A stretch of 44,782 bases of DNA, from sequence record SRR20825006_690, one strand, 5' to 3'. Below are positions 15,620-39,357 of the stretch, piece by piece (position 1 is the first letter of the stretch; each line of letters opens with the position of its first letter). Both the position numbers and the translations under genes were made by a program. Below the pieces are notes generated by a model. That model did not search any database. It saw only the letters and a program-made list of their open reading frames with translations, and was not told the origin of the DNA.

Positions 15620-15818
15620 AAGAATCTGAAGTATGTCAATTAAGTTGCCAATATAAAAAGGGAGAAATCTTAAGGGCAAGAATATATAGTAAAGCTTTCT
15701 AAAAAGAAGCCCGAATCTATCAAGTTTATCCAAATTTACAACTCTTCTTTTTTTATGATATGATTAAATTATCTCTTAGTTTCCGTTTTTATTGAAGGAA
15801 ATCATCTACAATTAGTCT

Positions 15819-17099: not shown

Positions 17100-17106
17100 A
17101 TACTTC

Positions 17107-18310: not shown

Positions 18311-18796
18311 ATGAAAAATAAACTGCTTTTTATAGTACTAATAATTATGATCTTACCTGCGCTAGTAATAGCTCAGGATGGTGGCCCAGTTTCTTCGGTC
18401 TTGTCGGTGTATAGAATTACACTTGACGCTGACGGAAAAGAAATAGCCACAATTACAAGTGAGGTAACACCTGGTGATTTGATAGAATACAGGGTCTCAT
18501 ATACAAACAACGATGCAGGGGCAATCACGGCGCTTCAACCGATGCTGCCAATTCCAACTGGAATGGAATTTGTGAAAGACTCTGCTCGTCCTGCCATAAT
18601 AAGTGCCAGTGTTTCCAGTACAGGTACTGATTTCCAATCACTTCCTTTAACCCGACAAGTGCGACGCCCGGATGGAGCGGTAGTTACCGAAGAGGTACCT
18701 GCTCGTGAATTCCGCAGATTAAAATGGATGGTAGAGTCGCTGGACGTAGGGGAAAGTGTAATTCTAGTCGCCCGGGTAAAGGTGATAGACAAGTAG
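18311..18796 (+). CDS. Small secreted single truncated DUF11-like domain protein (candidate chaperone/cap)
   Basis: Signal peptide VIA|Q. PGDLIEYRVSYTN...PIPTGMEFV...LKWMVESLDVGESVILVARVKV matches the DUF11 core but stops before the last strands. Confidence 0.85.
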   Translation: MKNKLLFIVLIIMILPALVIAQDGGPVSSVLSVYRITLDADGKEIATITSEVTPGDLIEYRVSYTNNDAGAITALQPMLPIPTGMEFVKDSARPAIISASVSSTGTDFQSLPLTRQVRRPDGAVVTEEVPAREFRRLKWMVESLDVGESVILVARVKVIDK

Positions 18797-18857
18797 TCAT
18801 TTTGGAAATCTAAAATTAAAACAAACAATTAATAATTCTAATCTAATAGGATAGAAA

Positions 18858-21494
18858 ATGAACAAAAACAAACATATACATAGTAAGAAAGCATTAAGCT
18901 TTGTTGGTATGCTGTTGCTTTGCGGGTTGTTTATCGGGCTTTCATCATCTGATGTATTTGCTCAGGTACCTCCAGCAGGTCAAAGCATTGGTAACACTGC
19001 TTCTGCAACGTATAAGGATACTGGTGGGATTACCCGTCCAGCTACTTCTAATACTGTAACAACAATCGTTCAGCAGGTTGCTGGATTGACTATTACTCCA
19101 GGTATTTCTAAAACAGTAAGTCCTGGTAACAACATTGCGTTCTCTCATACAATTACCAATACTGGTAACGGTACTGACAACGTAACTGTTGGTGTAGTTG
19201 ATGCCAATCCTTCTGGCGGAGATTTTGATTATACAAACATCAAAGTTTACGGCGATAATGGTGGTGCACCAGATTTAGGTAATGAAATTACAACTGCGAT
19301 TTCAATTCCTTCTACTGGTTCTAACACATACAAAGTATGGATTGTTGCTTCTGTTCCAGCTGGCGCTTCTGATGGCGATACTGAGAACTTAGTAATTACA
19401 GCTACAAGTGGTGTTGGTGCTAATCCATCTGTAACAGCTACTGATATTGGTACAGTTGCAGAAGATGCAGTAATTAACGTTGTAAAAGCAGCGAATACTA
19501 ATATTGCAGAAGTTGGCGATACACTTACTTATACCTTCACGTACAGTAACACTGGTAACGCAGCTGGTACTAACCTTAGAATCTCTGATGAGTTACCAAG
19601 TAATGTAACTTACATTCCTAACTCTGCAGTTTGGTCTGGTACAGCAGGTAACTTAACGGATGCAGCAGCAGGTGACCCAAGTGGTATTACTTACCAATAC
19701 AAGTCTGGTGTTACTGATTCGGTTATTTATGTAGTATCAACTGTAAACTCAGGTAACTCAGGTACAGTTAGTTTCAAAGCTAAAATTAATACTGGCTCTG
19801 AAGGTGCAACTATTTCCAACGAAGGTTTCTATACTCATGATGACATTACTGGATCAGCATCAACTGGCCAAGTAGATGTTACTATTGACGAAGTTTATGG
19901 TATCGTAGTTCAAGGTCCAGCTGTTGTGTCTTCAGATTCTGTAGATCAAGGTTCTACTGTTGATTTATTGAACAAGTTCACAAATATTGGTACTGATACT
20001 GATAACTTTGCGATTACGTACTCTGGAAATACATTCCCAGCTGGTACTCAAATCTTATTTTACCAAACTAATGGTTCTGGCGTTGCCACTAACCCTTACT
20101 CTGGTAATATAGTAACAGGTATTGCACCGGGCGCTACCATTGAAGTTGTTACTCGTATTAGTCTTCCATTAGGAGCTACAGGTGGTCCGTTTAAATTAGA
20201 CAAGACCTTAACTTCTGATAACGATCCAAGTAAATCAGCAACAATTCGTGACTCTTTAGGCGGTATCTTTACTGCAACTGTAGATCTTACGAATGATTTT
20301 GCTTCAGGTACTGCAGGAGCATTAGGTGAAGGTGTAACTACAAATGGTGAAGTTGCAGCTGTTAAAACTCAATCTGCTCTTCCTGCTACATCTGTTAATT
20401 TTACATTATTCGTAAAAAACACAAGTGATATTGATGACAACTACGGTCTATCATATAGCACAGACAATACTTTTGCAGCTATTACTCTTCCTTCAGGATG
20501 GAGTATTGTATTTAAGGATCCAGCTAACGGTAACAGTATAATTACTACTACTGGCAACATCACTGCAGGTGCAAGCAAGCAAGTTATTGCTTCTGTTAGT
20601 ATCCCAGCTGGTTACGCACCAGGCGACGTTGAAATGTTTTTCCGTGTGTTATCTTCAAACACAGGTGCTAAGGATATTATCCACGATAAAGTAACTGTAT
20701 TAGTTAACCAGAGCATTACACTTAACTCAAGCCAATCAGGTACTATTTTCCCAGGTGGTTCTAAGACGTTTGTTCACTCATTTAATGTGAACTCTAACGT
20801 TGACGAGAATGATGGTACTAACTCTGACTTTGAAATCACACTTTCTAACAGTCAGTCTGGTTACAGTGCTCAGGTTTATGTTGATAATGACAACAACGGT
20901 ATTATTACTAATGTCGATTCACTTATTACAAGTGCAACTAGTGGTGCAAATGGTTTCCCTACTACAGTAGGTACATTAAACTACGGCGACGTTGTTAAAC
21001 TGATTGTTAAAGTAACAGCTCCTGCTGGTGCAACTGTAGGTGATAACAACACTACTACATTATCAATCGCTGATCTTGAATCTAATGTTTCTACGCTTAC
21101 CAACACCGATTTGGTAACTGTACAAACAGGTGTATTGAAGATTGAAAAATATCAGTCTCCAGATTCAGCTAACGTTGCATTTGCTCAAGCAAATTTGACT
21201 TCAGTTCCTGGCGATACCATGTACTACAAGCTTGTTATTTATAATGATGGTTCAGGATTTATTTCTGATATCAACATTAGTGATTCAACTCCTGCTTACA
21301 CAAAAATTGTAGGTTCAGCAGTTCTAGAATTCAATGCAGCAAACTTTGCTGGTACAACTGGTGATCTGGCTCCTTCAATTGTTTCTCAGCCAGCAGATGG
21401 CACAAGTGGAACATTGAGTATTCATATTGATAAGCTAGATGCCTCTGATGATGACGTGGTTATCATATTTGCCGTAAAAATTAATGGCAATTAA
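18858..21494 (+). CDS. Secreted tandem Ig/DUF11 protein (878 aa), candidate fibre shaft subunit
   Basis: Signal peptide VFA|Q; N-terminal PAGQSIGNTASATY...SNTVTTIV segment; four NxGxxxD-type Ig domains; one complete DUF11; C-terminal truncated DUF11. Confidence 0.88.
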   Translation: MNKNKHIHSKKALSFVGMLLLCGLFIGLSSSDVFAQVPPAGQSIGNTASATYKDTGGITRPATSNTVTTIVQQVAGLTITPGISKTVSPGNNIAFSHTITNTGNGTDNVTVGVVDANPSGGDFDYTNIKVYGDNGGAPDLGNEITTAISIPSTGSNTYKVWIVASVPAGASDGDTENLVITATSGVGANPSVTATDIGTVAEDAVINVVKAANTNIAEVGDTLTYTFTYSNTGNAAGTNLRISDELPSNVTYIPNSAVWSGTAGNLTDAAAGDPSGITYQYKSGVTDSVIYVVSTVNSGNSGTVSFKAKINTGSEGATISNEGFYTHDDITGSASTGQVDVTIDEVYGIVVQGPAVVSSDSVDQGSTVDLLNKFTNIGTDTDNFAITYSGNTFPAGTQILFYQTNGSGVATNPYSGNIVTGIAPGATIEVVTRISLPLGATGGPFKLDKTLTSDNDPSKSATIRDSLGGIFTATVDLTNDFASGTAGALGEGVTTNGEVAAVKTQSALPATSVNFTLFVKNTSDIDDNYGLSYSTDNTFAAITLPSGWSIVFKDPANGNSIITTTGNITAGASKQVIASVSIPAGYAPGDVEMFFRVLSSNTGAKDIIHDKVTVLVNQSITLNSSQSGTIFPGGSKTFVHSFNVNSNVDENDGTNSDFEITLSNSQSGYSAQVYVDNDNNGIITNVDSLITSATSGANGFPTTVGTLNYGDVVKLIVKVTAPAGATVGDNNTTTLSIADLESNVSTLTNTDLVTVQTGVLKIEKYQSPDSANVAFAQANLTSVPGDTMYYKLVIYNDGSGFISDINISDSTPAYTKIVGSAVLEFNAANFAGTTGDLAPSIVSQPADGTSGTLSIHIDKLDASDDDVVIIFAVKINGN

Positions 21495-21559
21495 GAAATT
21501 GCATTAACCCAATGAGGTTAGGGTTGAGAGCCCTTTCTTCATCTTAAAAAACAAAGAAC

Positions 21560-24500
21560 TTGAAAAACATCCTTAAACATACACTTCTTTTTGTTCTGCT
21601 TTTAGCAGGCTTGGGAGAGGTATATGCTCAGGATGGAGTTCCTCCGCACAACACGAAAATTGTAAATATTGCAGACGGTACTTATGATAGTGCTAAAGGC
21701 CCGGGTGTTGTACACTCAAACTCTGTATTAATCAATATTGATAATCCAGATAGAATAGATTTATTCCCAAATCATACAGTAAGTGAATTTAGAGGTACGA
21801 GTGTACAATTCAATCATACCCTTACAAACAAATCTCCAAATAGTGATTCTTTCGAAATTCAAATTTTCAATGATGGAGATGATGATTTTGACCTAGAAGA
21901 TTTAAAAATCATTTCGGAAGAAAAGTCTAAATCTGTGGCCACTGATACTCTTAAACTACAAGTTACTCTTGCTGCAGGGCAGTCATTTATATTCAAATAT
22001 CAAGGAACAATCAATACTACGGAGCAAACGAGAATAACTGCAAAGATGGTAATTAGAGCAATATCTCTAACAAGTCTTGACCAGGTAGACAACATTGATG
22101 TTATTTCGATATTAAATGGTACAGAAATTCAACTGAATAAAACGTTTGAAGAAGGTTCCGAGTTTGTTCGTGGCGAAACTTTCAATTATGTATTGGAAGG
22201 TAAAAATATAGGTGATATATCAGCTAATGGTACATCCGTTGTTTTAGATGGAGCACCAGCGTCGAAAGTAATTTTAAGAGATAAAATTCCTGCAAATACC
22301 ACGTTCGACAGATTTGTTAGCACTTCTAAAGGAACTCCAGTTTATCATTTATTTGGTAGTGGTGAAGTTGAATACACTTCAATTATACCAACTAGTTTAG
22401 ATGAAATCGATGAGATTGCTGTTCTCTATGACTCAGTTCAAGCAGGTGAGGCTTTTAGCACAACTTTTAGCGTGAGAATTAATGATGCAGCATCAGACTC
22501 ACTGGTCAACGTAGCTGAAGTAACTTATGTTGATCCTGATGGAGATATTACAAAAGCGGCTGCTTCTCAGGAAGTTGTTGCTGAACTCGAAGAAGGCGAT
22601 GCAGACATCAACTACTTTACAGATGAAGGCTTTGGGCAAAAAACGGGTACATCTACTATTGGGAAGCCACTTTTCTTGCAAGCAAGTGCAGGTGCATGTA
22701 ATGAAAATGCTGGCTTAATTGAAACTGTTCGTATTGAAATTACATCTACGCTTACTGGAGACATGGAAGAGTATGGAGCTACCGAAACAGCTCGTAACAC
22801 TGGTATTTTTAGAGTTGATAACCCTGTGCCAACTAGAAGCGCTGCTGAATTCGAGCAGATAACGGGAAACTTGATTTTAGAGGTACTTGAGCAAGACGTA
22901 TTAATTGCAAAACTTGATTGCCAGAACTCTAAAACACAAAATACTTCAATTACTACTCAAATAATTCTAGATCCTTTTGGAATTGTATTTGACTCAGAGT
23001 CTAACAAACCTGTAGAAGGTGCTTTGGTAAAGTTGATTGATGTAACTGGTGCTGGAAACGGTGGTAATGCTGGTGGTTTAGCTAAAGTTTACGATGTTGA
23101 TGGAGTAACTGAGCTGCCAAATGAGCAAATAACTCCTGCAAATGGTGAGTATCGTTTTCCTTTTATTCAACCAAGTTCTTACCGAATTGAAGTTATAGCT
23201 CCTAAAGGTTACGAAGCCCCATCGCAAGTAAATAAAGCTTTGCTGGATCCAGCAAGAATAGTTAAAGATTCATTGTCATACGGTGGAGTATTTATTATTA
23301 ACGTTATTCCACAATCAATTGAAAGTGATATTCCAATTGATCCAACAGGAACTAATGTTTTATTCACTAAGAAAACAGTTAATAAATCTGCCGTTGAAAT
23401 TGGAGATTACCTTACTTATACAATTACAATTTCTAGTAAAGCGGTAAACAATATCGATTCTACCAAAATTGAAGATCATCTTCCTTTTGGTTTTGAATAT
23501 CAGCTTGGCTCTGCTCGACTAGATGGCGTAGCTTTTTCAGACCCAGTTGGTGGAACTGGTCCAACCTTAATCTTTAATGTTGGTACTGTAAAGCCTTTAA
23601 CCTCTGTTGAACTAAGCTACAAAGTGTATGTAGGACCAGGGGCAGAGCGTGGTGATGGAATAAACACTGCAATTTCAAGCAGTGAAGAAGGTGTTGTACA
23701 CCGCCAAAGTTTACCAGCTAAAGTGAAAGTAGAAGTAAACGGTGGTGTTTTTAGTAACGACGCATATATAGTTGGAAAGGTTTTTGCCGACCTCAACGAA
23801 AATAAAGTTCAAGACCCTTACGAAAAAGGTGTGCCAGGCGTCCGTTTATACTTAGAAACTGGCTCTTATGTTGTAACCGATGTAAAAGGTAGATATACTT
23901 TTTACGGTATTACCCCAAATAAACATGTTCTAAAGCTCGATAACACTTCACTACCTAAGGGTTCTCGTCTTAATATTCTTGATAACCGTCATGCTAACGA
24001 TCCATCAAGCAGGTTTGTGGATTTGAAAAATGGTGAAATGCAACGAGCCGATTTTGCAATTTGTTATTGCGCAGGTGATATTGTTGATGAAGAAATTGAC
24101 CGCCGTATTACTGCATACTCTGAAAACAATGATGAATTAAAGAACTCTTTAAATCAAAGCTTTTCTACAGAAGAACAAGCTACCTCTAAACAAGGTGGTT
24201 ACGGTAACATTAGTGGTGTTGTTGGGGGAGCAGAAGTTAAAGATGTTAAGCGCAATACAACTAGCACAACTAAAGCTGTTGATTCCACTAAAGTGGAAAG
24301 CTCTATCGCTAAAATTGAAGAGCGAGATTTACTCCTAGAAGCTGTTGAAAATGGAAGTCCTGATCTTGAAATGTTAAATATCGTTGATGGTGATACTCTA
24401 AAGTCTACCACATTGAAGCTTCAAGTAAAATCATCATCAAGCGCTACAGTATATTTATATGTTAACGAAGACCTTATTGGTGTAGATAATGTAGGGCGAA

Positions 24501-27500
24501 CTGAAATCAATGAGAATACTGGAGTTCAAGGGCTGGAGTTTTATAACCTAGGTTTAAAAACAGGCAAAAACGTACTTACGCTTCAAGTAAAAGATCCTTT
24601 TGGAAATGTTCGAGAAGAACAGATTGCTACACTTTACGCACCAGGTAAACCGGCTCAATTAGTAATAACTATTCCTAGAAATAATATTGAAGCAGATGGC
24701 GAATCCAAAGCCTTAATTAATGTTGATGTAACCGATGAAAACGGAATGCATATCGGTTCTGAATTTCAAATCACTCTCGATCTATCTGAAGGCAAATTGC
24801 TTGTTCAAGATGAAAACCCTAAAGAACAAGGCACACAAGTTACCCTAAGTTCTGGGAAAGGAAGCTTTACGTTAAAGGCACCAATTGAGCCAAGAACAGT
24901 GAAAATAGTTGCGAAACTAGGAGTTTTAACTGATGAAGCTCGATTAAACTTTGTTCCTAATTTAAGACCTCTAATTGCTGCTGGTATTATTGAAGGTACG
25001 ATTAGACTTAGCGAGCCATTGAGTATTAGCTCTGCGAGCAGTTCTGATGGTTTTGAGCGTGAACTAACAGCTCTTTCTCGTAGTTTCGAGAACTTCACTT
25101 TAGATGGTCGTTTCGCATTCTTCTTAAAAGGTAAAATTGCTGGTAGTACTTTATTAACGGCATCGTACGACTCAGAGAAATCTGAAGAAGAGCGTTTGTT
25201 TAGAGATATAAGGCCAGATGAATTCTATCCTGTTTATGGCGAAACATCGCTAAAAGGATACGATGCACAAAGTTCTGGTAGACTTTATATCCGTTTAGAC
25301 CATAACAAAACCTACGCTGTTTACGGCGATTTCATTACGCAGGAAAGAGACCAAGATCGTCAACTTGGTGATTATAGCCGTGCCCAAACAGGTATTAAAA
25401 CTCATTTCGAAAATGAAATATTAAAAGCTACAGCATTTGGTAGTCAATCTTACTCTAGCAGATTAGTAAGAGAATTCTCTGGACAAGGTATTTCAAGATA
25501 TGAGCTTCCAGATGAAGAGATTGTTATAAATAGTGAGATTATTGAAATTCTTGTTTACGATAGAGATCAACAAGATGTTCTATTAAGTAGTACTCGTTTA
25601 ACACGTTTCAAAGATTATGCGATTGAGCCGTTTACAGGAACATTGGTATTTTCAGAAGCTATTTCTAGTGTAGATGAAAACTTTAATCCTGTTGTGATTA
25701 GAGCCACTTATGAAGTAGAAAACGGTGGCGACAAATACCTTATTGGTGGGGCAGATGTATCAGTTAGCCCAATTGATGGTTTAGAAATTGGAGCTGGTAT
25801 TGTTCAAGATCAAAATCCTGAAGACAATTTCAACCTTACTTCTGTTAATGCTGGCTATAGCATTGGGAAAAACACAAAAATAGTTATTGAAGGTGCTCAA
25901 ACTATTACTGATAGCAAGGGCACGGGCCAAGCAGGTAGAGTAGAAATTCAGCATAAAAATAACTTAGCAAATGTTAGACTTCAGGTTGGTAGATCCGATA
26001 AAGATTTTGCAAACCGATCTACAACATTAAGCAGTGGTAAAACAGAAGCTAAAGTTAAAGGTCGTTTGAAACTGGGTAATTCTTCAAGTTTAAACACCGA
26101 AGCTCTTTATTCTCGTAATGATACTACTGGCAACGAAACTGTTGGTGGCTTAATGACCTTGCAAAAAACATTCTTTGGAAACATCAGTACTGAGTTAGGT
26201 TTGCGCTATTCAAGACAAGAAACAGGTGTTGGTACTACCTCAGCTGAGGTTATTGAGAACACAAACTTAAGAAGTAAGCTTTCTGCGGATCTTCCATTTA
26301 TTGACGGCTTCTCAACTTTTGCGGAATACGAGCAAGATTTAAACAATGCTGATAAGCGTCTTTTTGCATTAGGTGGCGATTATAAAATCAACAACTTTGC
26401 TAAAGTGTATGCTCGCCACGAGTTTTCTTCTTCTGCTGAAGGTAGATACACATTAAACGAGAATGTTAGAAAACAAAACTCGGTATTTGGTATTAAGTCG
26501 AGCTATATGAAGAATGGCGAAGTATATAGTGAATATCGTATTAACGACGCTGTTGACGGTGAAAGTGGACAAGCTTCATTAGGGCTAAGAAATAGTTTTC
26601 AGTTAGCCGATGGCTTTAACTTAAACGCCGGCTTTGAACGTATCTTTACTGTGAAAGGGAAAAGAGGCGGAGACGGAACGGCAATTTCTACGGCCTTAGA
26701 TTACACGGCAAATCCAAACTGGAAAGCTACAGCAAAAGCAGAAGCTCGTTTTACTAGCTCTGACAGAACGTATGTAAACAGTCTCGGTTATGGCCAACGT
26801 ATTAATGAGTCTTGGACATTCTTAGGTAAAAACATTATTGCACTAGCTGAAAAAGCAGGTACTTCAGGCTTTAGCAAAGTTCAAGAAAGATTACGTTTAG
26901 GTGCTGCATATAGAGACGTAGATACCAACAGGTGGGATGCTCTTTTCCGTTATGAATTTAAATACGAAAACGACAAAAATGTAAGTGCTGATTACGAAAG
27001 AAGTGTACACGTTTTCTCAAACCATGCAAACTATCATCCTTCAAATGATTGGACTTTCTCTACTCGTTTAGCTGCAAAATACGCTGTTGAGAATGATACT
27101 GACTTCAGTGAGTCAAGCTTCTTAGAGTTAGCTTCAGGTAGAGCTTTATACGATATCAACGAAAAGTGGGATGCAGGCGTAAACGCTAGTTTGTTAGCAA
27201 ATAGCGACTTTACTACTAAAGATTATGGAATGGGAGTTGAAGTAGGTTTTATTGCAGCAACGAACCTAAGAATTGCAACAGGCTTTAACTTCTTTGGATA
27301 CGATGACGAAGATCTAGTGGATAATTCTTACACAAGAAAAGGTGCTTATTTAGGCTTTAGCTATAAATTTGATGAACGTTTGTTTGAGTCACTTGCGCCT
27401 ACTAAACATAAGCCATTCCTAGATCCAAACTTGTATCTAACCTGTGATGCTGTTGAAGTTTGTAATCCAATATTAATCTTGGATTTAGAAAAAGACTGGT

Positions 27501-31280: not shown

Positions 31281-34200
31281 CAGGTACTGTTACGGATGCT
31301 ACCGCTCCAAGTGTATCTACAACTACTGTTTCTGGAAACAGATTGATACTTGATTACAGTGAAGATTTAAATGAAAATTCGGTTCCTTCAACCACTGATT
31401 ATGTAGTTAAAATTAACGGCTCTCCAGCAACAATTTCAGCTGTAGATATTAATGGGGATAAGGTAAGTATTGATTTCACACCAAGTGTAGATGCAGGTGA
31501 TAATATTACCGTAGATTATACCGCTGGAGTAAATCCAATTCGTGATATTGTTGGCAACAACGCCAATAGTTTTACTTCTTTATTAGTTAATAACAGCGCA
31601 GCATTTACTACAGGTTTTGGGCCCGATCCTTGTCCTATCGTAAATGGGAAAGATGCTGCATGGACTTGTTTCGATGGAAGCAACAATGGTACAACCATGC
31701 GTGCTGAAGTTGGTGGGCTTGAAATAGCAACTATTACAGCCGCCTCAGGAAGTCAAACAACATTCTCACCCAATGCACTACAATCTTGGACAAGCGGTGC
31801 TTTTTCTGGTGATGAATTTAACGGCCCACAAATCAATGCTACAGGGAACGGTGGTAATGCTACTTCATTCGATATAAACATTCCTGTAGGTGTGCCATCC
31901 GATGCAATTATGTTATCGTTAAACAGATTACGTCCTGATGGTGGTGGAACTTCGTACACGTTAGAAGCTTTTGACGGAAGTAACACAAAAGTTCCACTTA
32001 ATGGTTGGTTAACTGGGCAAGGATCTGATGGGGGAGTTTGTACAAATTCAGTTAATATTAATTATGCAAATGGAAACACCACTATACAGTTTCAGCCTAC
32101 GGTTTCTGGCGTTCCTGCATGTGCGTCTTCATCAACTCCAGTTTGGTTTAAAATTACAAACGAAAACGTCCGACGGATTGAATTAAGAAAAACAGCTGCT
32201 CAACCAGATAACATTTATTTAGGATTAGCTTTGGTTGCTGACTTTGGTGATGCACCAAACGTTTATGGAACGAGCTACAGTTCAAGAACAGCGCCTCCTG
32301 CTTTTCACCTGCTAAATAATGATGCTCCAAACGTTGTTTATTTCGGTGCTGGCGTAGATGCAGATGGTAACGGTATACCTAGTTCTGCTGCCAATAATGA
32401 TGTAGAGGATGCAATTGTAAACTTTCCAGTTCTTACTTCTGCTACTACAAATTATTCGGTTACATTAAGTTGTACCAACGGTGGAAATGTAGGAGCATGG
32501 ATAGATTTTGATCAGTCAGGATCTCTTGATGAAGGCGAATTTGACTCAGGAATTTGTTCCTCAAATAGTGTAACGCTAAACTGGTCGGGACTTTCTGGAA
32601 TGATTACAGGAACGTCTTATGCTCGTTTCAGAATTGCAAGCAGCGCTAATGAAGTAGCTACACCAACAGGTTCTGCAAAAGATGGTGAAGTTGAAGATTA
32701 TCAAATAACTATTTCTGAGCCAAAAACACCAGATTTGAGTCTTGTTAAATCGGTTAATAACTCTACTCCAATTGTGGGAGAAACCATCACCTATACGTTA
32801 ACTGTAACTAACCCTGGTGAATATATTGCTACCGATGTTAGAGTTACAGATGTGCTCCCTGCTGGCGTTACATTTGTAAGCTCAACTGCTAGTCAAGGTA
32901 ATTATAATAACGTAACGGGTGTTTGGATTATAGGCAACTTTGCTGCTGGCGATACTACTATTGCTACACTAGATATAGAAGCTTTAGTTGATGCTGGCAC
33001 TTTAGGTTCGGTTATTACCAACTCGAGTTCAATTTCGAACTTAAACGAAACAGATTTAAACCTTGCCAATAACTCTTCTGAAACGGGTATTACCGTTGTT
33101 CCAGAATCTGCTGATATCGGGATTACAAAAATAGCGAGTAACGCAAACCCAATTGAAGGCGAGTTTATGTCCTTTACGGTTTCAGTTACTAACAACGGGC
33201 CAAAAGCAGCAACGAATCTTAAAATTCTGGACCAATTACCTACAGGTATTACATATCAAGATTCTTTGCCAAGTGTAGGTATTTACAATCCCTCAACAGG
33301 AATTTGGGACATTGGAAATTTAGCTAATGGAGCAAGTGCTTCATTAATTCTAAACGTTAGAGTAGATGGAAGCACTCAAGGAAATACCATAAATAATACG
33401 GCTGCACTTAATGGAATGGACCAATCAGATTCTAATTCCCAAAATAACACAGCAACTGCTTCTATTACCATAGTTCCACCAATAGCTAATTTATCGTGTG
33501 GACTTCCATACTTGAAATTCCGAAACGCGTCACTTATATCAGGGAGTGCGCTGCAAATAGGGGCCGTATATAAATTTCCGAATGTTCTTACTGGGGTTTA
33601 TGCAAAAGTTGAAATTGTTACTATTAATAACGCCACAATAAAGAATATTGATGATGGCGTTACAAGTGGTCTACCAAATGAATTTTCTCCCTTTATAGAA
33701 AATACAACTGGTGGTAACGGTTACCTTGACTTTGAGATCTCATTTTATGATTCGGCGTCTAATCTTTCTCGTTATTTATCTTTCGCAGCTACTACTTCCG
33801 ATGTTGATGGGACTGGTGATCTGAAGGATTTTGTTGGATATCAAAATCTAAACTCATTTATAGTTGAGAATACAACTGAACTGGTTGTTGGTACAGAAGG
33901 GTTATACACAACTTTTACTTCAAATGACTTTTCAGATACTTCGCCTAATCAGAATGATTATTCAGAATACAAAGTCTATACATCTTACACTAATGAGCCA
34001 AAATTTAGGCTTCGTGCAGGGATAAAAGCTGGAAACACAGTTGATGATCGTATTATTTCAGTAAATTTTGATCCTTGTGAGATTAATACATTCAATGATC
34101 CTGTAACTCAAAGTGTGGTCGATGTTGGTGTAACAAAATCTGTTGATGATAATTCAGTTACTGTTGGTCAAACTGTAACCTATACTGTACAAGCTGCCAA

Positions 34201-37200
34201 TAAAAAAGCTAATGCTGTGGGGAGTGTGAAAATTACAGATCAACTTCCAGGGGGTTTGACTTACGTTTCTTCTAACCCAAGTCAAGGTACTTATAACAGC
34301 GGAACTGGCATTTGGGACGTTGGGTCACTTTCAGGATTACAAGTTGCTACTATTGATATTGTAGCAACAGTAAATACTGGTCAGCAAGGAAATACCATTA
34401 CTAACACTGCAACTCTAAGCGATAATAGCGGCGTAGATGGAGTTGCCGCAAATAATACAGCATCAGTAGCAATCGCTGTATTTGATCCAAACTCTGGATT
34501 GAGTTGTACTGAACCGCCTAAATATTCTTTTATCAATTATAACCTTGAACAAGGGTCTAATAATCAAGTAAATTCGATTTACCGTTTTTCTAGTGTAGCA
34601 TCTGGTGTGGATGCAAAGGTAAAGATTATAGGAATTAATAACGCCACAATAAACGCTTTAGATGATGATGGAACAGTATCAAGTGGACAAGCAACTACCA
34701 CTAACTTCTCGCCATTATTTACCACAAATAATGGTACAAGTGCAGGTTATATCGATTGGGAAATTACATTTGTTGAGGCTGGAACTAATACTCCAATAAA
34801 AAGTAATTTCTCTGTTACTGCCTTAGATATTGATGGTACAAGTTCGGGTGGACAAACTATTCGAGATTATTATGGTTTTGCTCAGAATTTGTCTTCTACT
34901 GTTCAAGCTGGAAATAATATTAACGTAAGTACTCAAGGCCCATTTCAAATCTTTGAATCTTCGGTAACAAGTGATGCCAATGGTTCTTTCGATATCGATC
35001 ATATGGCGTATATTTCTTATAAATATACTTCTGTCTTTCAAGTTAGGTCTGGTTCTTTCCCAACGGGAGGGTACTCGAGTCAACGTATGGTTGAGTTTAA
35101 TTTTACGGAATGTTTGAATCAGGAATTTACAAACCCTGTTATAACAACTAGAGATGCTGATTTACAAGTTACAAAAACAGTAGATCAAGCTAATCCTTTA
35201 GAAAACGAAACCGTTAACTTCACAATCAGTGTTAAGAATAATGGACCTGAAGATGCTACAGAAGTTTCAATTAACGAGGCATTGCCAGCAGGCATTACTT
35301 TAGTTGAAGCTGTTCCAAGTCAAGGAACTTATAACCAAATTACAAAGCTTTGGAATCTTGGAACACTTGCAAATAACGCAACAGCTACCTTAGCACTCGA
35401 AACAACTATTAATCAAGGTTTGAGCCAAGATTCTTTGATTAACAAAGCATATGTAAAAGGCTTTAACCAGTACGATCCAACCATAGCAAACGATACTTCT
35501 CAGGTTGTATTGAAAGTTAGCGTTCAAGTAACTGGTACGGTGTTTAGAGATAAAACAGGCGATGGAATTACCGATGGCGATACCAATTTTGGAGATGCTT
35601 CAGGTGATCAACAAGCATTAGAAAATGTAGAAGTGCATCTCTTTAAAGACGGAGGAGATGGACTCGCTAACGGTGTGGATGATATCTACAAAGCTACAGT
35701 TCTGACAAACAACCAAGGAAAGTATGTATTCCAAATAGGTGAAAATGCGCCTTACTGGATTGCTGTAGATTCAAAAACTGGTGGGCTTTCGAATAACACC
35801 ACTTGGGCAGAACAAACGTATGCTCCAATTAACGCTCTTTGCAACGATGGTAATGGTGGAACCGATACTACAACAGTTGCTGGAAATTGCTTTGGTGGTA
35901 GAAGAGGTGGCGTTTCAGATAATATATCTACAAATCCTGTAGCCAGTGATTTGGCAAATGCTGAACACGTGGCTAAAGTTGCTGTATATGGTGGTGGTAC
36001 TACCGGTATCGACTTTGGTTTTAGCTTTAACGTAGTTACTGACGTTAGAGATGGTGATGATGATGGTTCCACTGCTCGTTCCATTCAAGGTTCGCTGCGT
36101 CAATTTATTGCAAACGCCAATGCAATTACTGGTGCGAATTCAATGCGATTTGTACCAGCGGTACCAACAAATCAATCATCTGGTGGGGGTAATTGGTGGT
36201 CTATTACGGCTTCATCGGCATTTCCGGCAATCACAGATGCACTTACAACCGTTGACGGTTCTGCTTTCGATCAATTTGCTCCTGTAACAGAAATGGACGA
36301 TAACTCTGGTTCTATCGGAACAGGCGGAAGTGTAGGTTTAGATTTACTTTCTATAAACTCTGCTAGTTTAAAAGAGCTAGAACTGAACTTAAATGATATT
36401 GGAGCAAGCGCTCTAAACATAAATAGCTCTGGTGCAGTTATAATTCGAGATTTAGCGATTTACAATAACAGTGTTGGTATTCAAATTACTTCGATGTCTG
36501 GCGGAACCATAGAAAATAACATGATTGGTACACGTGCAAATGGCGTTGACCCAACCGGTTCATCTAGATTAGACAAAGGTATTTCAGTAGTTGGAAGTGG
36601 CTCACTTTCGGCTCTTATAACTAAGAATTATATCGCATATGCAAATACAACGGGTGTTGCTGGTGATAACCCAAGTTCAAGTGTAACCCTATTTAAGAAT
36701 GAGGTTTATAAGAATGGTTTAGTTTCGGCAGGTGGCGATGGTATTGAAATAATCGGTACTTGGTCGGTCGAACAAAACTTAATTCACGAATCTGGTAATT
36801 CTTCCAGCTCCCCAATATCAGGCGGAAACGGTATTGAGATTGGTAAAGCTTCAGGTTTAAGCACAGGTAGCACCATTCGAAATAACACCATCATAAATAA
36901 CAGTGTTACAGGTATTAACGTATTTAACAACGTAACCAACACCGTTATTGAAAAGAATATAATTACTGGAAACGGAACCAATTATTCGTCGGCAAACACG
37001 CGACTTGGAGCAGGTGTTAAACTCACTTTCCCAAATACTCAGCCTCAGAATGGAATTAAGATTACTAATAACAGCTTTGCAAATAATTATGGTTTAGCAA
37101 TTGATATCGTTACCTCTGGTTCTGGGCAAGCTGATGGAGTTTCAGGTAATGATGGCGTTCTAGAGTCCACTTCAACTGAGCCAAACAGAGGAATTGATTA

Positions 37201-38956
37201 TCCAGTATTTACGCTTTCAACTCTTAATGGCTCGGTGTTACATGTTGAAGGTTATATAGGAACTGTGGCTACAAAATTATCTGGTACTTATACTATAGAA
37301 GTTTATAAGGCCAGTAATGATGGCGATAACAATGGCGCTCGTGAAGAAGGTGATGGACAGCTTGAACCGCACGGTGAAGGCCAATACTTATTAGGAACTA
37401 TTACGTCTAATCCAAATGGCTACTTTAGCCAAGATATCACAGTTCCAGGGTCAGTTTCTCTAGTATTTAATGATAGAATTACTGCTATAGCAATAGGATC
37501 AGCAAACAACACTTCTGAGTTTAGTACTAATCAACGGGTTGTTCCAACAGGTGTGTCTGTAAATGGTACGGTCTATCATGATACGAACTATAACTCGGTA
37601 CTAGAAAATGGAGAAACTGGGATTCAGGGAGTAACCATTGTTCTCTTTAATGTTTCTCAGAATAACTGTAAGAGTGTACTTACTGATGCAAACGGATTTT
37701 ATCAATTTGATAACGTACTTAATGGCCAATACCAAGTAATTGAAGCTTATGGCGAGGCAGTACCAACGCCTAATATTTGCACACCGGCTGCTGCAGATCC
37801 AACCGATCATGTTTCAACAAACACAAACTTACGTGATGTAACCATCAACAACTTACCATCTATTCAGAATTTTGGAGATTTTGAAGGAACCAAGGTTCAG
37901 GGTAAAGTATTTAAGGATAATGGTATTGGAAGTGGCATACCTAACGATGCTGTGCAGAATGGCGGTGAACTTGGATTAGGCAATGTTATTATTCAGGCAC
38001 TTAATAATGCAAATTCATTAATTCGCCAAACTACAACTAATGCTTCAGGAGCTTATACCTTATATCTTACAAAAACGGCTCTTCCAAATGGCAGTAGTGT
38101 TAAAATTAAGGAAAGCAATTTATCTGGTGATATCTCAACAGGTGGGAAGGTCGGAAATTCTGGTGGGACATATAATATTGCAGATGATGAAATTGTATTT
38201 ATAAGCTCGGTTGGCTTTAGCTATACTGAACTTAATTTTGGTGATGTTTCAACAAGTACATTACTTAACGATGGCCAAAGAATTGTGGCAGCTGGTTCTT
38301 CAACACAATTGTCGCATATTTTTGAAGCCAAAACTGGTGGGAATGTTACATTTACAACAGCTAATACCTTCGATCCAAGCATAATATGGCCAGTTATTAT
38401 CTATAGAGATTTAAATTGTAATAGCATTATTGACTCAGGTGAACCAGTACTAGACGGGAATACAGCTATCGCGGTAACTGCTAACGAAATGGTTTGTATT
38501 GTTGTAAAAGTGACAGCCCCTAACGGCTTGTCTAATGGTGCTTCAAGTACTTCAGTTGTTACGGCTAGTTTTGCATTAGTGAATACCACACCACTAATTA
38601 CGCAAACACTTTCAAAAACCGATTTAGTTACAGTAGATAACGCTCAAGGTGGCTTTACAATCACTAAAGTTGTAGACAAGAACTCGGCATTACCGGGTTC
38701 AATTCTTACCTATACTGTTACTTATTTAAATAATGGCTCAGATCCAATTTCTACTATTAAAGTTTCGGATACAGTTCCAGCTTATACCACTTTCAATTCT
38801 GCAGCTTTTGCAACACCGCTTCCTGATAACTTAACAGGATGCACAATTACAGCACCAGCAGTTGGTGCCACAGGACAAATAAAATGGGAATTTACAGGTA
38901 CTCTACTTCCAGGACAAAGTGGAACTGTTTCCTTCACGGTTAAAATAAACCAGTAA
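30305..38956 (+). CDS. C-terminal part of the same giant adhesin: FN3, SwmB-like, GEVED, 4x DUF11, SdrD-B-like, beta-helix, C-terminal truncated DUF11
   Basis: No signal peptide of its own; the frame is open from 30242 (ESASYTYTDNSAVNGTSYYYVVVALD), completing the FN3 repeat. DFGDAP...DGEVEDY; DLxxxK...TD.LP...ITN; GSLRQFIANANA followed by Asn-ladder repeats. Joined product would be 3406 aa. Confidence 0.88.
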   Translation: MVALDGANNVSLESNEVSDVSDGSAPNAPNNVVAAGLAGGDIQVSFDDVDETGSGVASYSIRRSTTQGGAYTQVGVINDNESSSYTYTDNTVSNGTTYYYVVATVDAVGNTSSNSSETSFTADSIIPVLQSATAEGTMLVLDYNEPLESSPVPSNGDFVVKVNNLTRNVASVAISNDSVKITLSSTIIIGDNIQVSYTAGTNPIQDISGNDAVNLTNQTVTNNTPDNTAPPAPTNVAAFALVGSDIDIKFDDVDEVGSGVVSYSIRRATVSGGPYSQIGTITDIESVNYTYTDNTASIGTTYYYIVVAIDASSNESTNSSEVTAESGTVTDATAPSVSTTTVSGNRLILDYSEDLNENSVPSTTDYVVKINGSPATISAVDINGDKVSIDFTPSVDAGDNITVDYTAGVNPIRDIVGNNANSFTSLLVNNSAAFTTGFGPDPCPIVNGKDAAWTCFDGSNNGTTMRAEVGGLEIATITAASGSQTTFSPNALQSWTSGAFSGDEFNGPQINATGNGGNATSFDINIPVGVPSDAIMLSLNRLRPDGGGTSYTLEAFDGSNTKVPLNGWLTGQGSDGGVCTNSVNINYANGNTTIQFQPTVSGVPACASSSTPVWFKITNENVRRIELRKTAAQPDNIYLGLALVADFGDAPNVYGTSYSSRTAPPAFHLLNNDAPNVVYFGAGVDADGNGIPSSAANNDVEDAIVNFPVLTSATTNYSVTLSCTNGGNVGAWIDFDQSGSLDEGEFDSGICSSNSVTLNWSGLSGMITGTSYARFRIASSANEVATPTGSAKDGEVEDYQITISEPKTPDLSLVKSVNNSTPIVGETITYTLTVTNPGEYIATDVRVTDVLPAGVTFVSSTASQGNYNNVTGVWIIGNFAAGDTTIATLDIEALVDAGTLGSVITNSSSISNLNETDLNLANNSSETGITVVPESADIGITKIASNANPIEGEFMSFTVSVTNNGPKAATNLKILDQLPTGITYQDSLPSVGIYNPSTGIWDIGNLANGASASLILNVRVDGSTQGNTINNTAALNGMDQSDSNSQNNTATASITIVPPIANLSCGLPYLKFRNASLISGSALQIGAVYKFPNVLTGVYAKVEIVTINNATIKNIDDGVTSGLPNEFSPFIENTTGGNGYLDFEISFYDSASNLSRYLSFAATTSDVDGTGDLKDFVGYQNLNSFIVENTTELVVGTEGLYTTFTSNDFSDTSPNQNDYSEYKVYTSYTNEPKFRLRAGIKAGNTVDDRIISVNFDPCEINTFNDPVTQSVVDVGVTKSVDDNSVTVGQTVTYTVQAANKKANAVGSVKITDQLPGGLTYVSSNPSQGTYNSGTGIWDVGSLSGLQVATIDIVATVNTGQQGNTITNTATLSDNSGVDGVAANNTASVAIAVFDPNSGLSCTEPPKYSFINYNLEQGSNNQVNSIYRFSSVASGVDAKVKIIGINNATINALDDDGTVSSGQATTTNFSPLFTTNNGTSAGYIDWEITFVEAGTNTPIKSNFSVTALDIDGTSSGGQTIRDYYGFAQNLSSTVQAGNNINVSTQGPFQIFESSVTSDANGSFDIDHMAYISYKYTSVFQVRSGSFPTGGYSSQRMVEFNFTECLNQEFTNPVITTRDADLQVTKTVDQANPLENETVNFTISVKNNGPEDATEVSINEALPAGITLVEAVPSQGTYNQITKLWNLGTLANNATATLALETTINQGLSQDSLINKAYVKGFNQYDPTIANDTSQVVLKVSVQVTGTVFRDKTGDGITDGDTNFGDASGDQQALENVEVHLFKDGGDGLANGVDDIYKATVLTNNQGKYVFQIGENAPYWIAVDSKTGGLSNNTTWAEQTYAPINALCNDGNGGTDTTTVAGNCFGGRRGGVSDNISTNPVASDLANAEHVAKVAVYGGGTTGIDFGFSFNVVTDVRDGDDDGSTARSIQGSLRQFIANANAITGANSMRFVPAVPTNQSSGGGNWWSITASSAFPAITDALTTVDGSAFDQFAPVTEMDDNSGSIGTGGSVGLDLLSINSASLKELELNLNDIGASALNINSSGAVIIRDLAIYNNSVGIQITSMSGGTIENNMIGTRANGVDPTGSSRLDKGISVVGSGSLSALITKNYIAYANTTGVAGDNPSSSVTLFKNEVYKNGLVSAGGDGIEIIGTWSVEQNLIHESGNSSSSPISGGNGIEIGKASGLSTGSTIRNNTIINNSVTGINVFNNVTNTVIEKNIITGNGTNYSSANTRLGAGVKLTFPNTQPQNGIKITNNSFANNYGLAIDIVTSGSGQADGVSGNDGVLESTSTEPNRGIDYPVFTLSTLNGSVLHVEGYIGTVATKLSGTYTIEVYKASNDGDNNGAREEGDGQLEPHGEGQYLLGTITSNPNGYFSQDITVPGSVSLVFNDRITAIAIGSANNTSEFSTNQRVVPTGVSVNGTVYHDTNYNSVLENGETGIQGVTIVLFNVSQNNCKSVLTDANGFYQFDNVLNGQYQVIEAYGEAVPTPNICTPAAADPTDHVSTNTNLRDVTINNLPSIQNFGDFEGTKVQGKVFKDNGIGSGIPNDAVQNGGELGLGNVIIQALNNANSLIRQTTTNASGAYTLYLTKTALPNGSSVKIKESNLSGDISTGGKVGNSGGTYNIADDEIVFISSVGFSYTELNFGDVSTSTLLNDGQRIVAAGSSTQLSHIFEAKTGGNVTFTTANTFDPSIIWPVIIYRDLNCNSIIDSGEPVLDGNTAIAVTANEMVCIVVKVTAPNGLSNGASSTSVVTASFALVNTTPLITQTLSKTDLVTVDNAQGGFTITKVVDKNSALPGSILTYTVTYLNNGSDPISTIKVSDTVPAYTTFNSAAFATPLPDNLTGCTITAPAVGATGQIKWEFTGTLLPGQSGTVSFTVKINQ

Positions 38957-39357
38957 TGCATAAAGAGAAAAAAGAACCAAAATATATAAAGCCACTTGTA
39001 TTCATTGTTGAAGACAATGAGGCTTACCGAATTCTTTTAGGGCGTATTTTAGAGAAAAGAGGATTTATGATTATGATGTTCGAGAACGGGCGTAAAGCCG
39101 TGGAAATGCTCGAATACTGCAAGCCTAGCCTTATTATATCAGACATCCAAATGCCTTGTATGGACGGCTTTGAATTGTATGTTATGATTAAGAAAAGGTA
39201 CCCTAAATTTGATATACCTTTTGTATATCTATCTTCAACAACGTCACAAGAAGAAATTGAAAAGGCCACCAAACTAAGCATGCGCGAAATGTTAGGTAAA
39301 CCCGTTCGCCCAGATGAACTAATGCATTCTATTAACAAAGCTATTCTTTCTGCTTAA
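38956..39357 (+). CDS. Single-domain response regulator (CheY-like receiver)
   Basis: IVEDN, SDIQMPCMDG (phospho-Asp), YLSS and GKP motifs; ATG overlaps the adhesin stop (TAATG). Confidence 0.92.
   Translation: MHKEKKEPKYIKPLVFIVEDNEAYRILLGRILEKRGFMIMMFENGRKAVEMLEYCKPSLIISDIQMPCMDGFELYVMIKKRYPKFDIPFVYLSSTTSQEEIEKATKLSMREMLGKPVRPDELMHSINKAILSA

Follow-up and report, generated by a model that had tools for sequence, protein, structure and literature searches.

Organization of the locus

The window, the whole 44,782-nucleotide stretch of record SRR20825006_690 that was analyzed, contains an operon of a marine Balneola bacterium in which four adjoining genes encode secreted proteins, each with half of a self-crosslinking adhesin domain. 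In order, the genes specify a cap (161 aa), a shaft (878 aa), an anchor (2391 aa), and a tip adhesin (~3400 aa); there is one gene of each kind, and the genes overlap or are closely spaced. The features are as follows, with the evidence in parentheses.

18311..18796, + strand: cap gene, 161 aa (TIGR01451 match; cap profile against the C-terminal-domain profile; alignments)
18858..21494, + strand: shaft gene, 878 aa (Pfam DUF11, DUF7507, and NPCBM_assoc; invariant columns in 45 non-redundant shafts)
18963..19073, + strand: shaft “tag,” residues 36-72, strands 8-9 of DUF11 (hhalign columns 88-121; predicted interface)
21117..21491, + strand: shaft “catcher,” residues 754-878, strands 1-7 of DUF11 (hhalign columns 10-87; predicted interface)
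21560..28735, + strand: anchor gene, 2391 aa (Pfam, NCBIfam; kept beside the shaft gene)
21629..21739, + strand: anchor “tag,” residues 24-60, with Asn36 at 21665-21667 (tag HMM, E 4e-16 in the near-identical L027 copy)
24974..27373, + strand: predicted giant outer-membrane beta-barrel of the anchor, approximately residues 1139-1938, roughly 35-39 long strands (AlphaFold2)
27593..27877, + strand: OmpA-like peptidoglycan-binding domain of the anchor, residues 2012-2106 (PF00691, E 1.1e-21)
28735..30270, + strand: tip adhesin, first ORF, 511 aa (Pfam DUF2341 and Laminin_G_3; junction sequence)
30239..30242, + strand: +1 frameshift site splitting the tip gene (three-frame translation; alignment with genome G001)
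30305..38956, + strand: tip adhesin, second ORF, 2883 aa (Pfam; domain alignment)
38648..38953, + strand: tip “catcher,” with Lys at 38666-38668, Asp at 38768-38770, and the end FTVKINQ (alignments)
38956..39357, + strand: receiver-only response regulator, 133 aa (PF00072, E 1.2e-23)

The cap, shaft, and anchor reading frames lie on the + strand where the preliminary description had placed them, and all of its coordinates are correct. The giant adhesin that it took for a single ORF does end in a truncated domain but is here divided between two ORFs. The first, whose start overlaps the anchor stop (TAATG), encodes a signal peptide, DUF2341, Laminin_G_3, and repeats, with no tag; the second encodes SWM repeats, GEVED, four complete DUF11 domains, a beta-helix, SdrD_B, and the C-terminal truncated DUF11 domain. 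The frameshift, previously overlooked, consists of one extra A at 30241 together with A for T at 30240. In the nearest genome, G001, the tip gene is a single open frame of 3406 aa, and the extra base is absent from contigs of three public runs (X1, X2, and X4); contigs of X5, the closest run, leave 30173-30268 uncovered. The tip C-terminus is kept in all seven tips compared, while their N-terminal parts are very different (949 to 3406 aa), and among related loci tips range from 279 to 3406 aa with the same C-terminus throughout. The response regulator, whose start overlaps the tip stop (TAATG), occupies this site in Balneola-type loci and is not found there in the paralogous locus or in G026.

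A Pfam scan of the 23 ORFs of the window gave no match to sortase, PapC/PapD, or Fim/Mfa families, as had been claimed, nor to any usher, chaperone, or fimbrial pilin family, and searches for an LPxTG motif and a lipobox found none. The operon architecture is kept in 21 of 23 genomes of the genus and is present in 63 of 75 related loci from three phyla, with a cap in 58 of the 63. Some loci (L073, L079, and L085) have two shaft genes; the cap is absent from loci with two shaft genes (L073, L078, and L085).

A DUF11 domain divided between proteins

The C-termini of the cap, shaft, and tip correspond to a DUF11/CLIPPER domain that breaks off at the end of strand 7; the two-strand hairpin missing there forms the N-terminus of the shaft and anchor, directly after the signal peptide. 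Against a reference profile of 20 complete DUF11 domains (127 columns), a 72-sequence profile of the C-terminal domain aligned by hhalign with columns 10-87 (E 1.9e-10), the match stopping at the last residue of the protein. A 101-sequence profile of the N-terminal peptide aligned with columns 88-121 (E 7e-4, with a probability of only 26% because the tag is short). The pieces therefore abut in register (87|88), as the split-domain observation of the preliminary description implied, and the internal DUF11 copies of the same proteins are complete. Sequence comparison thus establishes the split, its register, and its conservation.

The shaft comprises a signal peptide, the N-terminal hairpin, seven or so tandem Ig-like domains, one of them a complete DUF11 domain (K210, D244, and N321), and the C-terminal truncated DUF11 domain. 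Its tag, at the mature N-terminus, holds the invariant Asn46 (codon 18993-18995) and Asn65, and its catcher holds Lys764 (21147-21149) and Asp809 (21282-21284) and ends in FAVKINGN. In the anchor, the signal peptide and tag are followed by ~1100 aa of Ig-like domains (DUF11, SdrD_B, CarboxypepD_reg, and Big_1), the giant beta-barrel, and OmpA-like domains, with no C-terminal truncated DUF11 domain; the tag motif is visible by eye in twelve further anchors.

The proposed bookkeeping of donors and acceptors is right and holds across phyla: the anchor has only the N-terminal piece, the shaft has both, and the C-terminal piece alone is found in the tip and cap. The pattern is kept in all seven fully fetched operons, and a shaft with both pieces occurs in 58 of 63 classified loci (Balneolaceae, Proteobacteria, and Abditibacteriota). 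Both pieces are likewise present in 118 of the 120 best database homologues, the other two being truncated proteins. The same operon always encodes a tag-only protein (anchor) and catcher-only proteins (tip and cap).

In the cap, a signal peptide precedes a single isolated, truncated DUF11-type domain, which stops where the C-terminal domains of the shaft and tip stop; the cap profile and the C-terminal-domain profile are co-terminal (probability 97.9%, E 4.7e-13). AlphaFold2 modeled it with a mean pLDDT of 89.3, and a fold search gave no informative match (best E 7e-3, TM ≤ 0.45). In the alignments, caps have Leu at the position of the catalytic Asp, which was never found in them, and Arg at that of the Lys, a feature absent from the preliminary description. 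Since the catalytic Asp is missing, the cap probably binds without a covalent bond.

Predicted docking and the Lys/Asp/Asn triad

Prediction of a complex between shaft residues 745-878 and 36-202, a check that the preliminary description had proposed, gave a median score of 0.88 (runs, 0.87 to 0.89), against 0.00 for the best of three controls. For reference, 51 of 78 solved complexes attained this score, as did 2 of 108 mismatched pairs. It expresses likeness rather than binding in trans, is blind to cis versus trans, and may stem from the model having learned the intact CLIPPER fold, because the two pieces together make up a single known domain. The runs shared at least 98% of contacts, with a partner pLDDT of at least 92. 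The prediction sets residues 36-72 into the open face of the C-terminal domain, where they meet residues 756-766, 800-810, and 875-878, and the catcher pLDDT is ~90 with the tag versus 57 to 70 in controls. Packing of the N-terminal peptide into its own adjacent domain, which would have spoken against the proposal, is not seen in the model; the tag docks on the catcher, and only residues 102-104 of the next domain are in contact. Modeling thus supports tag-catcher docking.

DUF11 domains form an Asp-catalyzed Lys-Asn isopeptide bond, demonstrated crystallographically in PDB 9IFR (K715, D748, and N806, the last preceding the final strand) (PMC12617251). That DUF11 is a known isopeptide domain had not been recognized in the preliminary description. 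In the split copies, the Lys and catalytic Asp lie on the C-terminal half and the conserved Asn on the N-terminal hairpin. Alignment of 45 non-redundant shafts shows no variation at N46 or D809, and at least 90% of them have K764. The tag Asn is present in 49/49 unique shaft tags and 42/42 unique anchor tags found by HMM, and unique shaft C-termini have the catcher Lys in 57 and the Asp in 59 of 60 cases. Three of 12 tips, all from one lineage (Abditibacteriota), lack the Lys and also the Asp (Q and N instead); in tips the two residues are lost together, not singly.

With Lys and Asp on one piece and Asn on the other, the joint is probably covalent, and complementation should probably give an enzyme-free covalent link like that of a natural Tag/Catcher pair. 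We infer this bond between subunits; the lowest-error contacts of K764 in the predicted complex are S64, N65, and V67, not N46, and N46 was chosen as the bonding Asn by its spacing relative to 9IFR, whose alignment covers the first 57 columns only.

Proposed assembly and alternatives

We consider it likely that the secreted proteins of this operon assemble by themselves into a chain, linked via the split CLIPPER (DUF11) domain. The catcher (strands 1-7, with Lys and catalytic Asp) ends the tip and shaft, and the tag (the strand 8-9 hairpin, with Asn) begins the shaft and anchor, directly behind the signal-peptide cleavage site. The tag of a protein would enter the catcher of its distal neighbor, whose beta-sandwich it would complete; this would unite Lys, Asp, and Asn, so that an isopeptide bond could form spontaneously. 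The product would be tip-(shaft)n-anchor, with n ≥ 1. The anchor, having a tag and no catcher, would be the chain terminus, and the DUF2341/LamG-like modules, being N-terminal in the tip (Pfam), would be distal, in agreement with the distal lectin end proposed earlier. Of the head-to-tail chain put forward there, the donor/acceptor logic and the predicted docking stand on computational grounds, while n > 1 is only inferred.

The giant barrel would hold the chain in the outer membrane and the OmpA-like domains would tie it to peptidoglycan; a second OmpA-like stretch follows the first ahead of the anchor stop, the two lying within residues 2019-2391. As the sole conserved membrane component of the cluster, the barrel is the likeliest exit for the chain, which may leave through it as in an usher or autotransporter. 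AlphaFold2 modeled residues 1099-2018 with moderate confidence (mean pLDDT 73.2). No Pfam family matched the barrel even at E ≤ 1, and Foldseek returned only generic large barrels (LptD, SlpA, MtrB, SprA, and FimD; TM ≤ 0.26) and no solved translocon closely resembling the model. The cap, a catcher lacking Asp, probably binds tags in a reversible manner, serving as a placeholder in the periplasm or forming a minimal end of the chain on the distal side.

Strand complementation might instead stop at one tip, one shaft, and one anchor, giving a three-piece giant adhesin (n = 1) and thereby a means of exporting a stalk of >5000 aa in pieces. The single gene of each kind in one compact operon is consistent with this, as is an anchor tag that, tethered at the barrel, could capture the first shaft; we regard it as possible yet doubtful, because the shaft has both tag and catcher, its own tag is predicted to dock on its own catcher, and some loci have two shaft genes. 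It is also rather unlikely that the joint is a non-covalent donor-strand complementation in which the conserved Lys, Asp, and Asn serve the fold only. Chaperone-usher and type V pili, whose stability needs no covalent bonds, provide a precedent, and Lys and Asp are missing from the Abditibacteriota tips and from all caps; however, these residues are lost jointly rather than singly, and split copies from different phyla retain, with very few exceptions, the triad of the isopeptide family (PMC12617251).

Closure in cis, with the N-terminal hairpin of the shaft completing its own C-terminal domain in a closed loop, would agree with the presence of both pieces on one polypeptide and with a prediction compatible with cis or trans. 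It would, however, have to bridge seven or so tandem domains and would leave the tag-only anchor and the catcher-only tip and cap without partners, and we judge it very unlikely. We give hardly any credence to the reading of these proteins as ordinary independent DUF11 adhesins with misread domain boundaries: DUF11 limits are fuzzy in Pfam matches, but the register is exact, the internal domains are complete, the pattern recurs in nearly all homologues, and the tag is predicted to dock on the catcher rather than on its own next domain.

Comparison with known systems

The chain proposed here, for which we found no published description in the literature searched, draws on a known family. The complete DUF11 copies within the shaft, anchor, and tip are typical of the CLIPPER/DUF11 (PF01345) isopeptide domains of fibrillar adhesins (Pfam, TIGR01451; 9IFR, E 0.0046), with Lys, Asp, and Asn at the same positions as in 9IFR (PMC12617251). 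In the known form the bond is intramolecular and the domain serves as a repeat unit of the stalk, whereas in this operon the terminal copies stop after strand 7 and their two parts belong to separate secreted proteins, so the same chemistry would join subunits; the portion of PMC12617251 available to us contains no reference to a split form.

Donor strands combined with an isopeptide lock have been published before, in other folds, as donor-strand “exchange and lock” in Sulfolobus acidocaldarius threads (PMC9715654) and in Clostridium perfringens BsaA of the TasA family (bioRxiv 10.1101/2024.11.04.621531). According to these reports, an N-terminal strand completes the beta-sheet of the next subunit and an intermolecular isopeptide locks it, with no sortase. 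Those subunits are single-domain, of TasA-like or thread fold, from monoderm or archaeal hosts with no outer membrane, and lack a barrel anchor or separate modular tip; here the fold is CnaA-like CLIPPER, the shafts are multidomain (~880 aa), and an outer membrane, barrel anchor, and modular tip are all present.

Chaperone-usher pili (Fim/Pap) share the order from tip to anchor or terminator, an N-terminal donor fitting a groove on the preceding subunit, a lectin-like distal domain on the tip adhesin, and a large outer-membrane barrel at the base. They differ in donating one strand rather than a two-strand hairpin with a probably covalent joint; the present system has no PapD-like chaperone, PapC/FimD usher, or fimbrial pilin match (Pfam), and its barrel is part of the same polypeptide as the last subunit and the OmpA domains, with FimD only a weak generic match (rank 32, TM 0.18; Foldseek). 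Type V pili (Fim/Mfa, Bacteroidota) are also built by strand exchange, and an anchor subunit stops their growth, but the subunits here have no lipoprotein signal and no Fim/Mfa family match. In type V secretion (autotransporters, intimin/invasin), passenger and barrel likewise form one chain; here no autotransporter family matched, and the barrel is far larger and followed by OmpA domains. Sortase pili of Gram-positive bacteria resemble the proposed chain in their covalently linked multidomain pilins, internal isopeptide domains, tip adhesin, and basal subunit, but this diderm locus has neither a sortase gene nor an LPxTG motif, and the link would be autocatalytic, within a reconstituted domain.

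SpyTag/SpyCatcher is a man-made split of a CnaB-type isopeptide domain, in which a short peptide with one reactive residue and a larger part with the other two reconstitute the domain and bond spontaneously. Split isopeptide domains have also been designed de novo (bioRxiv 10.64898/2026.08.13.744004). The tags and catchers of this operon divide the residues in the same way as SpyTag and SpyCatcher but would represent a natural split, of a CnaA-like domain, serving fiber assembly.

Gene organization and the tip frameshift

Five co-oriented genes occupy 18311-39357:

18311-18796, + strand, cap (161 aa)
18858-21494, + strand, shaft (878 aa)
21560-28735, + strand, anchor (2391 aa)
28735-30270 and 30305-38956, + strand, tip adhesin, two ORFs in the window
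38956-39357, + strand, receiver-only response regulator, its start overlapping the tip stop codon

A TAATG overlap is present at both the anchor/tip and the tip/regulator junctions. In Balneola-type loci, namely those of the nearest genome (G001), of the related genomes G005, G016, and G017, and the first locus of G012, the response regulator is kept at the post-tip position. The preliminary description treated the giant adhesin as one gene. This holds for G001, where the tip is a single open frame of 3406 aa and the shaft protein is 99% identical to that of the window, but in the window itself the frame is broken inside a repeat by one extra base at 30241 (site 30239-30242), leaving two ORFs. 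The extra base is absent from G001 and from the contigs of three public sequencing runs. The break may be a sequencing or assembly error or a strain-specific mutation; an assembly error is possible because X5, of all runs the one nearest to the window, lacks a contig for 30173-30268, a coverage hole exactly at the frameshift.

Bat/aerotolerance-related genes lie just upstream of the operon on the - strand (13641-17997), with a peptidase gene between them, and two further ORFs run antisense to the operon:

13641-14636, - strand, BatA + VWA
14636-15733, - strand, 365-aa ORF, no family
15819-17099, + strand, M23 peptidase
17107-17997, - strand, DUF58 + VWA
35752-36084, - strand, 110-aa antisense ORF inside the tip gene
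39024-39338, - strand, 104-aa antisense ORF inside the regulator gene

The two antisense ORFs are most likely not genes. Farther upstream (234-4023), a 757-aa ORF without a Pfam family is followed by an overlapping 511-aa DUF5723 protein.

A DUF11 domain divided between proteins

DUF11 (TIGR01451) was matched in all four structural proteins by Pfam and NCBIfam. PF01345 scored 27.6 bits in the shaft, 41.9 in the anchor, and 371 in the tip (curated cut-off, 24.6), and the cap scored 27.3 bits against TIGR01451 (cut-off, 24). The N-terminal 1100 residues of the anchor contain SdrD_B, CarboxypepD_reg, and Big_1 domains, and its C terminus consists of OmpA-like domains (PF00691 at residues 2012-2106, E 1.1e-21, 77.5 bits against a cut-off of 27.2). 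The tip begins with DUF2341 and Laminin_G_3, followed by SWM repeats, GEVED, a beta-helix, and several complete DUF11 domains.

Twenty complete DUF11 domains, all taken from tip proteins, were combined into a complete-domain profile of 127 columns. A set of 72 unique C-terminal domains from shafts and tips matches columns 10-87 of this profile (E 1.9e-10) up to the last residue of the protein, while a set of 101 unique mature N termini from shafts and anchors matches columns 88-121, a short match with an E value of 7e-4 and a probability of 26%. As the C-terminal pieces (catchers, strands 1-7) end at column 87 and the N-terminal hairpins (tags, strands 8-9) start at column 88, the two abut exactly. 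The cap profile is co-terminal with the C-terminal-domain profile (probability 97.9%, E 4.7e-13), making the cap a free-standing version of that truncated domain. Thus the nine-strand CnaA-like sandwich is incomplete within one chain for the terminal copies only (columns 10-87 and 88-121 of 127). The split is real and conserved. The register at 87/88 confirms the earlier reading that shaft, tip, and cap end in a DUF11 domain cut short and that shaft and anchor begin with the missing piece; profiles and homologous loci likewise uphold the assignment of the anchor as donor only, the shaft as donor and acceptor, and the adhesin as acceptor only.

A putative isopeptide triad divided between tag and catcher

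In 2025, DUF11 was described under the name "CLIPPER": the domain is CnaA-like, and an isopeptide bond forms within its own chain by autocatalysis (PMC12617251). In crystal structure 9IFR, the bond joins Lys715 to Asn806 with Asp748 as the catalytic residue, and Asn806 precedes strand 9, the last strand, which holds Cys818-Cys821. By alignment, the internal complete domains of the operon proteins carry the triad, with K210, D244, and N321 invariant, and in the complete-domain alignment (A4) columns K6 and N95 are invariant. For the terminal copies, sequence alignment divides the triad between two proteins: the catcher holds the Lys (shaft K764, "IEK") and the Asp (D809, "ISDSTP"), and the N-terminal hairpin holds a conserved Asn (N46, "I-G-N-T-A").

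In a set of 45 non-redundant shafts, every sequence has N46 and D809, and at least 90% have K764. The Asn is found in 49/49 shaft hairpins and 42/42 anchor hairpins (unique sequences), and unique shaft C termini keep the Lys in 57 and the Asp in 59 of 60 cases. Tips without the Lys (3 of 12) all come from Abditibacteriota, hence from one lineage, and have lost the Asp too (Q and N at these positions). These tips are 647 aa long (loci L060:18594-20537, L062:18663-20606, and L065:12785-14728), and shafts of the same loci keep both Lys and Asp. The replacement of Lys and catalytic Asp by Gln and Asn suggests that the tip joint in this lineage is not covalent.

A search of one complete DUF11 domain against PDB sequences gave no match, and a four-sequence profile found 9IFR over its first 57 columns only, so that the Asn is not mappable by alignment. 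The choice of N46 as the bonding residue over N65, which is conserved to the same degree, was instead made by spacing: Lys and Asn lie 89 residues apart in the complete domains of this system and 91 apart in 9IFR. Judged from these conserved residues, an isopeptide link between tag and catcher is moderately probable.

Predicted docking of hairpin and catcher

Docking of a C-terminal domain with an N-terminal peptide had been proposed as a check of the split. When shaft residues 745-878 were folded with shaft residues 36-202, the shaft/shaft pair gave a median score of 0.88 (three runs, 0.87-0.89) versus 0.00 for the best of three controls, in agreement with the proposal; the tool's mark is reached by 51/78 solved complexes and by 2/108 mismatched pairs. 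The runs share at least 98% of their contacts, and the partner pLDDT is at least 92. In the predicted interface, catcher strand 1 (756-766), the Asp-bearing strand (800-810), and the C-terminal end (875-878) face residues 36-72 of the partner, whose own first domain barely contacts the catcher (residues 102-104 only). The lowest-error contacts predicted for K764 are S64, N65, and V67. Catcher pLDDT is ~90 with the hairpin, compared with 57-70 with control partners.

Because the two segments are halves of one domain, the pair may have passed through likeness to the intact known fold. The model is also equally compatible with docking in cis and in trans. Docking of the N-terminal hairpin on the catcher is supported by the prediction, and we regard complementation in trans as likely.

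Conservation across genomes

Of the 23 genomes in the genus, 21 have the four-gene operon, as do 24 of the 41 relatives searched. All seven operons fetched whole share one layout, including a paralogous second locus of G012 and the locus of G026, a genome from another family; the tips, 949 to 3406 aa long, have their C terminus in common, whereas their N termini are unrelated. The second locus of G012 (L021:968-13420, also L055) is a diverged copy of the whole system, with a 38-40% identical shaft, an anchor of 2121 aa, a tip of 949 aa, and no response regulator after it. In G015, a TAG stop interrupts the shaft gene (L037:9908-12667), giving ORFs of 448 and 443 aa.

Scanning species-representative genomes with the shaft alignment yielded 75 loci. 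Genes were classified by HMM in 63 loci, which come from Balneolaceae, Gracilimonas, Beta-, Gamma-, and Alphaproteobacteria, and Abditibacteriota. The other 12 loci (Chloroflexota, Nitrospirota, and Elioraea) were weak partial matches with no tag, cap, or anchor by HMM and were left out. A cap is present in 58/63 loci. The donor/acceptor pattern expected of homologous operons is kept: a shaft with both the N-terminal hairpin and the C-terminal truncated domain occurs in 58/63 loci, and 118 of the 120 best shaft homologues in a collection of 5.8 billion proteins have both pieces, the other two being truncated. HMMs found the anchor hairpin in 42 loci, and inspection by eye added 12; another two "anchors" are fragments of split genes. 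Catcher-only tips were found in 12 loci, a count bounded by the 10-kb flank. Among L073, L077, L079, L080, and L085 (gammaproteobacterial and other Pseudomonadota loci), some have two shaft-like genes, and three lack a cap within the fetched flank. The proteobacterial OmpA part is encoded on its own, by a gene of 200-400 aa that follows the barrel gene. Carriers that are in culture include Gracilimonas mengyeensis DSM 21985, Balneola sp. EhC07, and Ramlibacter sp. 2FC.

The shaft family comprises at least 814 clusters at 90% identity, with the database names "hypothetical," "DUF11 domain-containing," "TIGR01451 family," and an automatic "trimeric autotransporter adhesin" only. A cap profile search of 1.84 billion representatives returned 12234 proteins (E≤0.001), a number that is no measure of this system because giant multi-DUF11 proteins matching the core only dominate it; about one quarter of the top 150 are cap-sized and full-length. 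Protein Atlas names for the cap are automatic only ("DUF11 domain-containing protein" and "TIGR01451 family").

The cap and the anchor barrel

In the cap, the Asp position is Leu in 37/37 aligned sequences and the Lys position is variable (K, R, L, N, V). The cap is absent from the fetched flanks of the two-shaft loci L073, L078, and L085 and is thus not universally required. All caps have an extra hairpin between strands 5 and 6 (residues 112-139; P112, G122, and W139 invariant) without a counterpart in shaft and tip catchers. Residues 114-128 of this hairpin may occupy the groove of the cap itself, which would otherwise be open, or the hairpin may extend into a partner. A Foldseek search of the cap model against the PDB gave no usable neighbor (best E 7e-3, TM ≤0.45, rmsd >8 Å). 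As a catcher without catalytic residues, the cap would probably bind a hairpin reversibly, serving as a periplasmic placeholder or a minimal distal end.

Between its Ig-like and OmpA parts, the anchor has 920 residues without a Pfam match, even with the threshold relaxed to E≤1. The AlphaFold2 model of this segment (mean pLDDT 73.2) is a very large beta-barrel with some 35-39 long strands. Foldseek retrieved only generic giant barrels (LptD, Deinococcus SlpA, MtrB, SprA, and FimD; TM ≤0.26), and no family was assigned from these hits. Across phyla, the cluster keeps no membrane component other than the barrel, which makes the barrel the inferred exit of the chain, as in an usher or autotransporter; export through it is possible but somewhat doubtful.

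Proposed assembly

Once exported by Sec and freed of its signal peptide, a protein would insert its hairpin into the open sandwich of its distal neighbor, giving the chain order tip, shaft(s), anchor, with about even chances of more than one shaft per chain. Completion of the fold would unite Lys, Asp, and Asn, and the bond would form spontaneously. The anchor, having a hairpin and no open domain, would end the chain and tie it to the outer membrane through the barrel and to peptidoglycan through the OmpA domains. The head-to-tail chain of the preliminary description is supported computationally by register, conservation, and shaft/shaft docking, and the conserved residues make enzyme-free covalent assembly probable. 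Taken jointly, these elements would amount to a new class of Gram-negative fibre: an enzyme-free covalent polymer built via a naturally split CnaA-like isopeptide domain, in which a family-less barrel (~36 strands) on the last subunit is export pore, terminator, and cell-wall anchor, a dead catcher (the cap) is the chaperone, and one C-terminal plug mounts adhesins of 279 to 3400 aa on one stalk. We put forward this joint reading tentatively, at slightly less than an even chance.

If it is true, diderms of several phyla (Balneolota, Proteobacteria, and Abditibacteriota were seen) make covalent fibres from four genes, with no sortase, usher, or ATPase, and textbooks gain one more pilus class. 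For marine Balneola, it would also explain how an adhesin of >3000 aa could be shown on a modular, exchangeable stalk, and it would flag an uncharacterized giant outer-membrane barrel as a possible protein conduit. Engineered Tag/Catcher pairs use the same chemistry as proposed here; their principle would have a natural counterpart, and protein engineering could draw on the family for many natural peptide/domain pairs that ligate themselves and may be orthogonal.

Relation to known systems

The Pfam scan of 23 ORFs contained no PapD-like chaperone, PapC/FimD usher, fimbrial pilin, or sortase family, and neither Pfam nor NCBIfam matched a Fim/Mfa family, as had been stated for the window. No LPxTG motif occurs in the five ORFs, and no lipobox within the first 40 residues of the operon proteins. 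The Por secretion tail TIGR04183 of type IX cargo had no NCBIfam match in the five proteins, and the C termini where it would sit are truncated DUF11 domains. TasA-like (peptidase M73-like) proteins, the thread-subunit fold, and SipW-type signal peptidase had no family match in the operon or window. A lead to TafC of tafi, the archaeal TasA-like fibres, was discarded, as it covered the LamG part only (26.2 bits against an NCBIfam cut-off of 410). The stalk cluster (sfz) of Gallionella and Zetaproteobacteria, with BcsB-like and glycosyltransferase genes, bears no relation to the operon.

The preliminary description knew of no account of this assembly mechanism, and our searches of article full texts found no description of split DUF11/CLIPPER assembly; the supplementary tables of PMC12617251 might list truncated domains. 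The proposed logic is that of chaperone-usher and type V pili, as noted earlier, with a different fold and with their defining families unmatched. A donor strand combined with a covalent lock is also reported for archaeal threads (PMC9715654) and for Clostridium perfringens BsaA (bioRxiv 10.1101/2024.11.04.621531), whose defining families are likewise absent here. The system is best filed as a putative variant of the donor-strand fibres, with a new fold and a new outer-membrane component.
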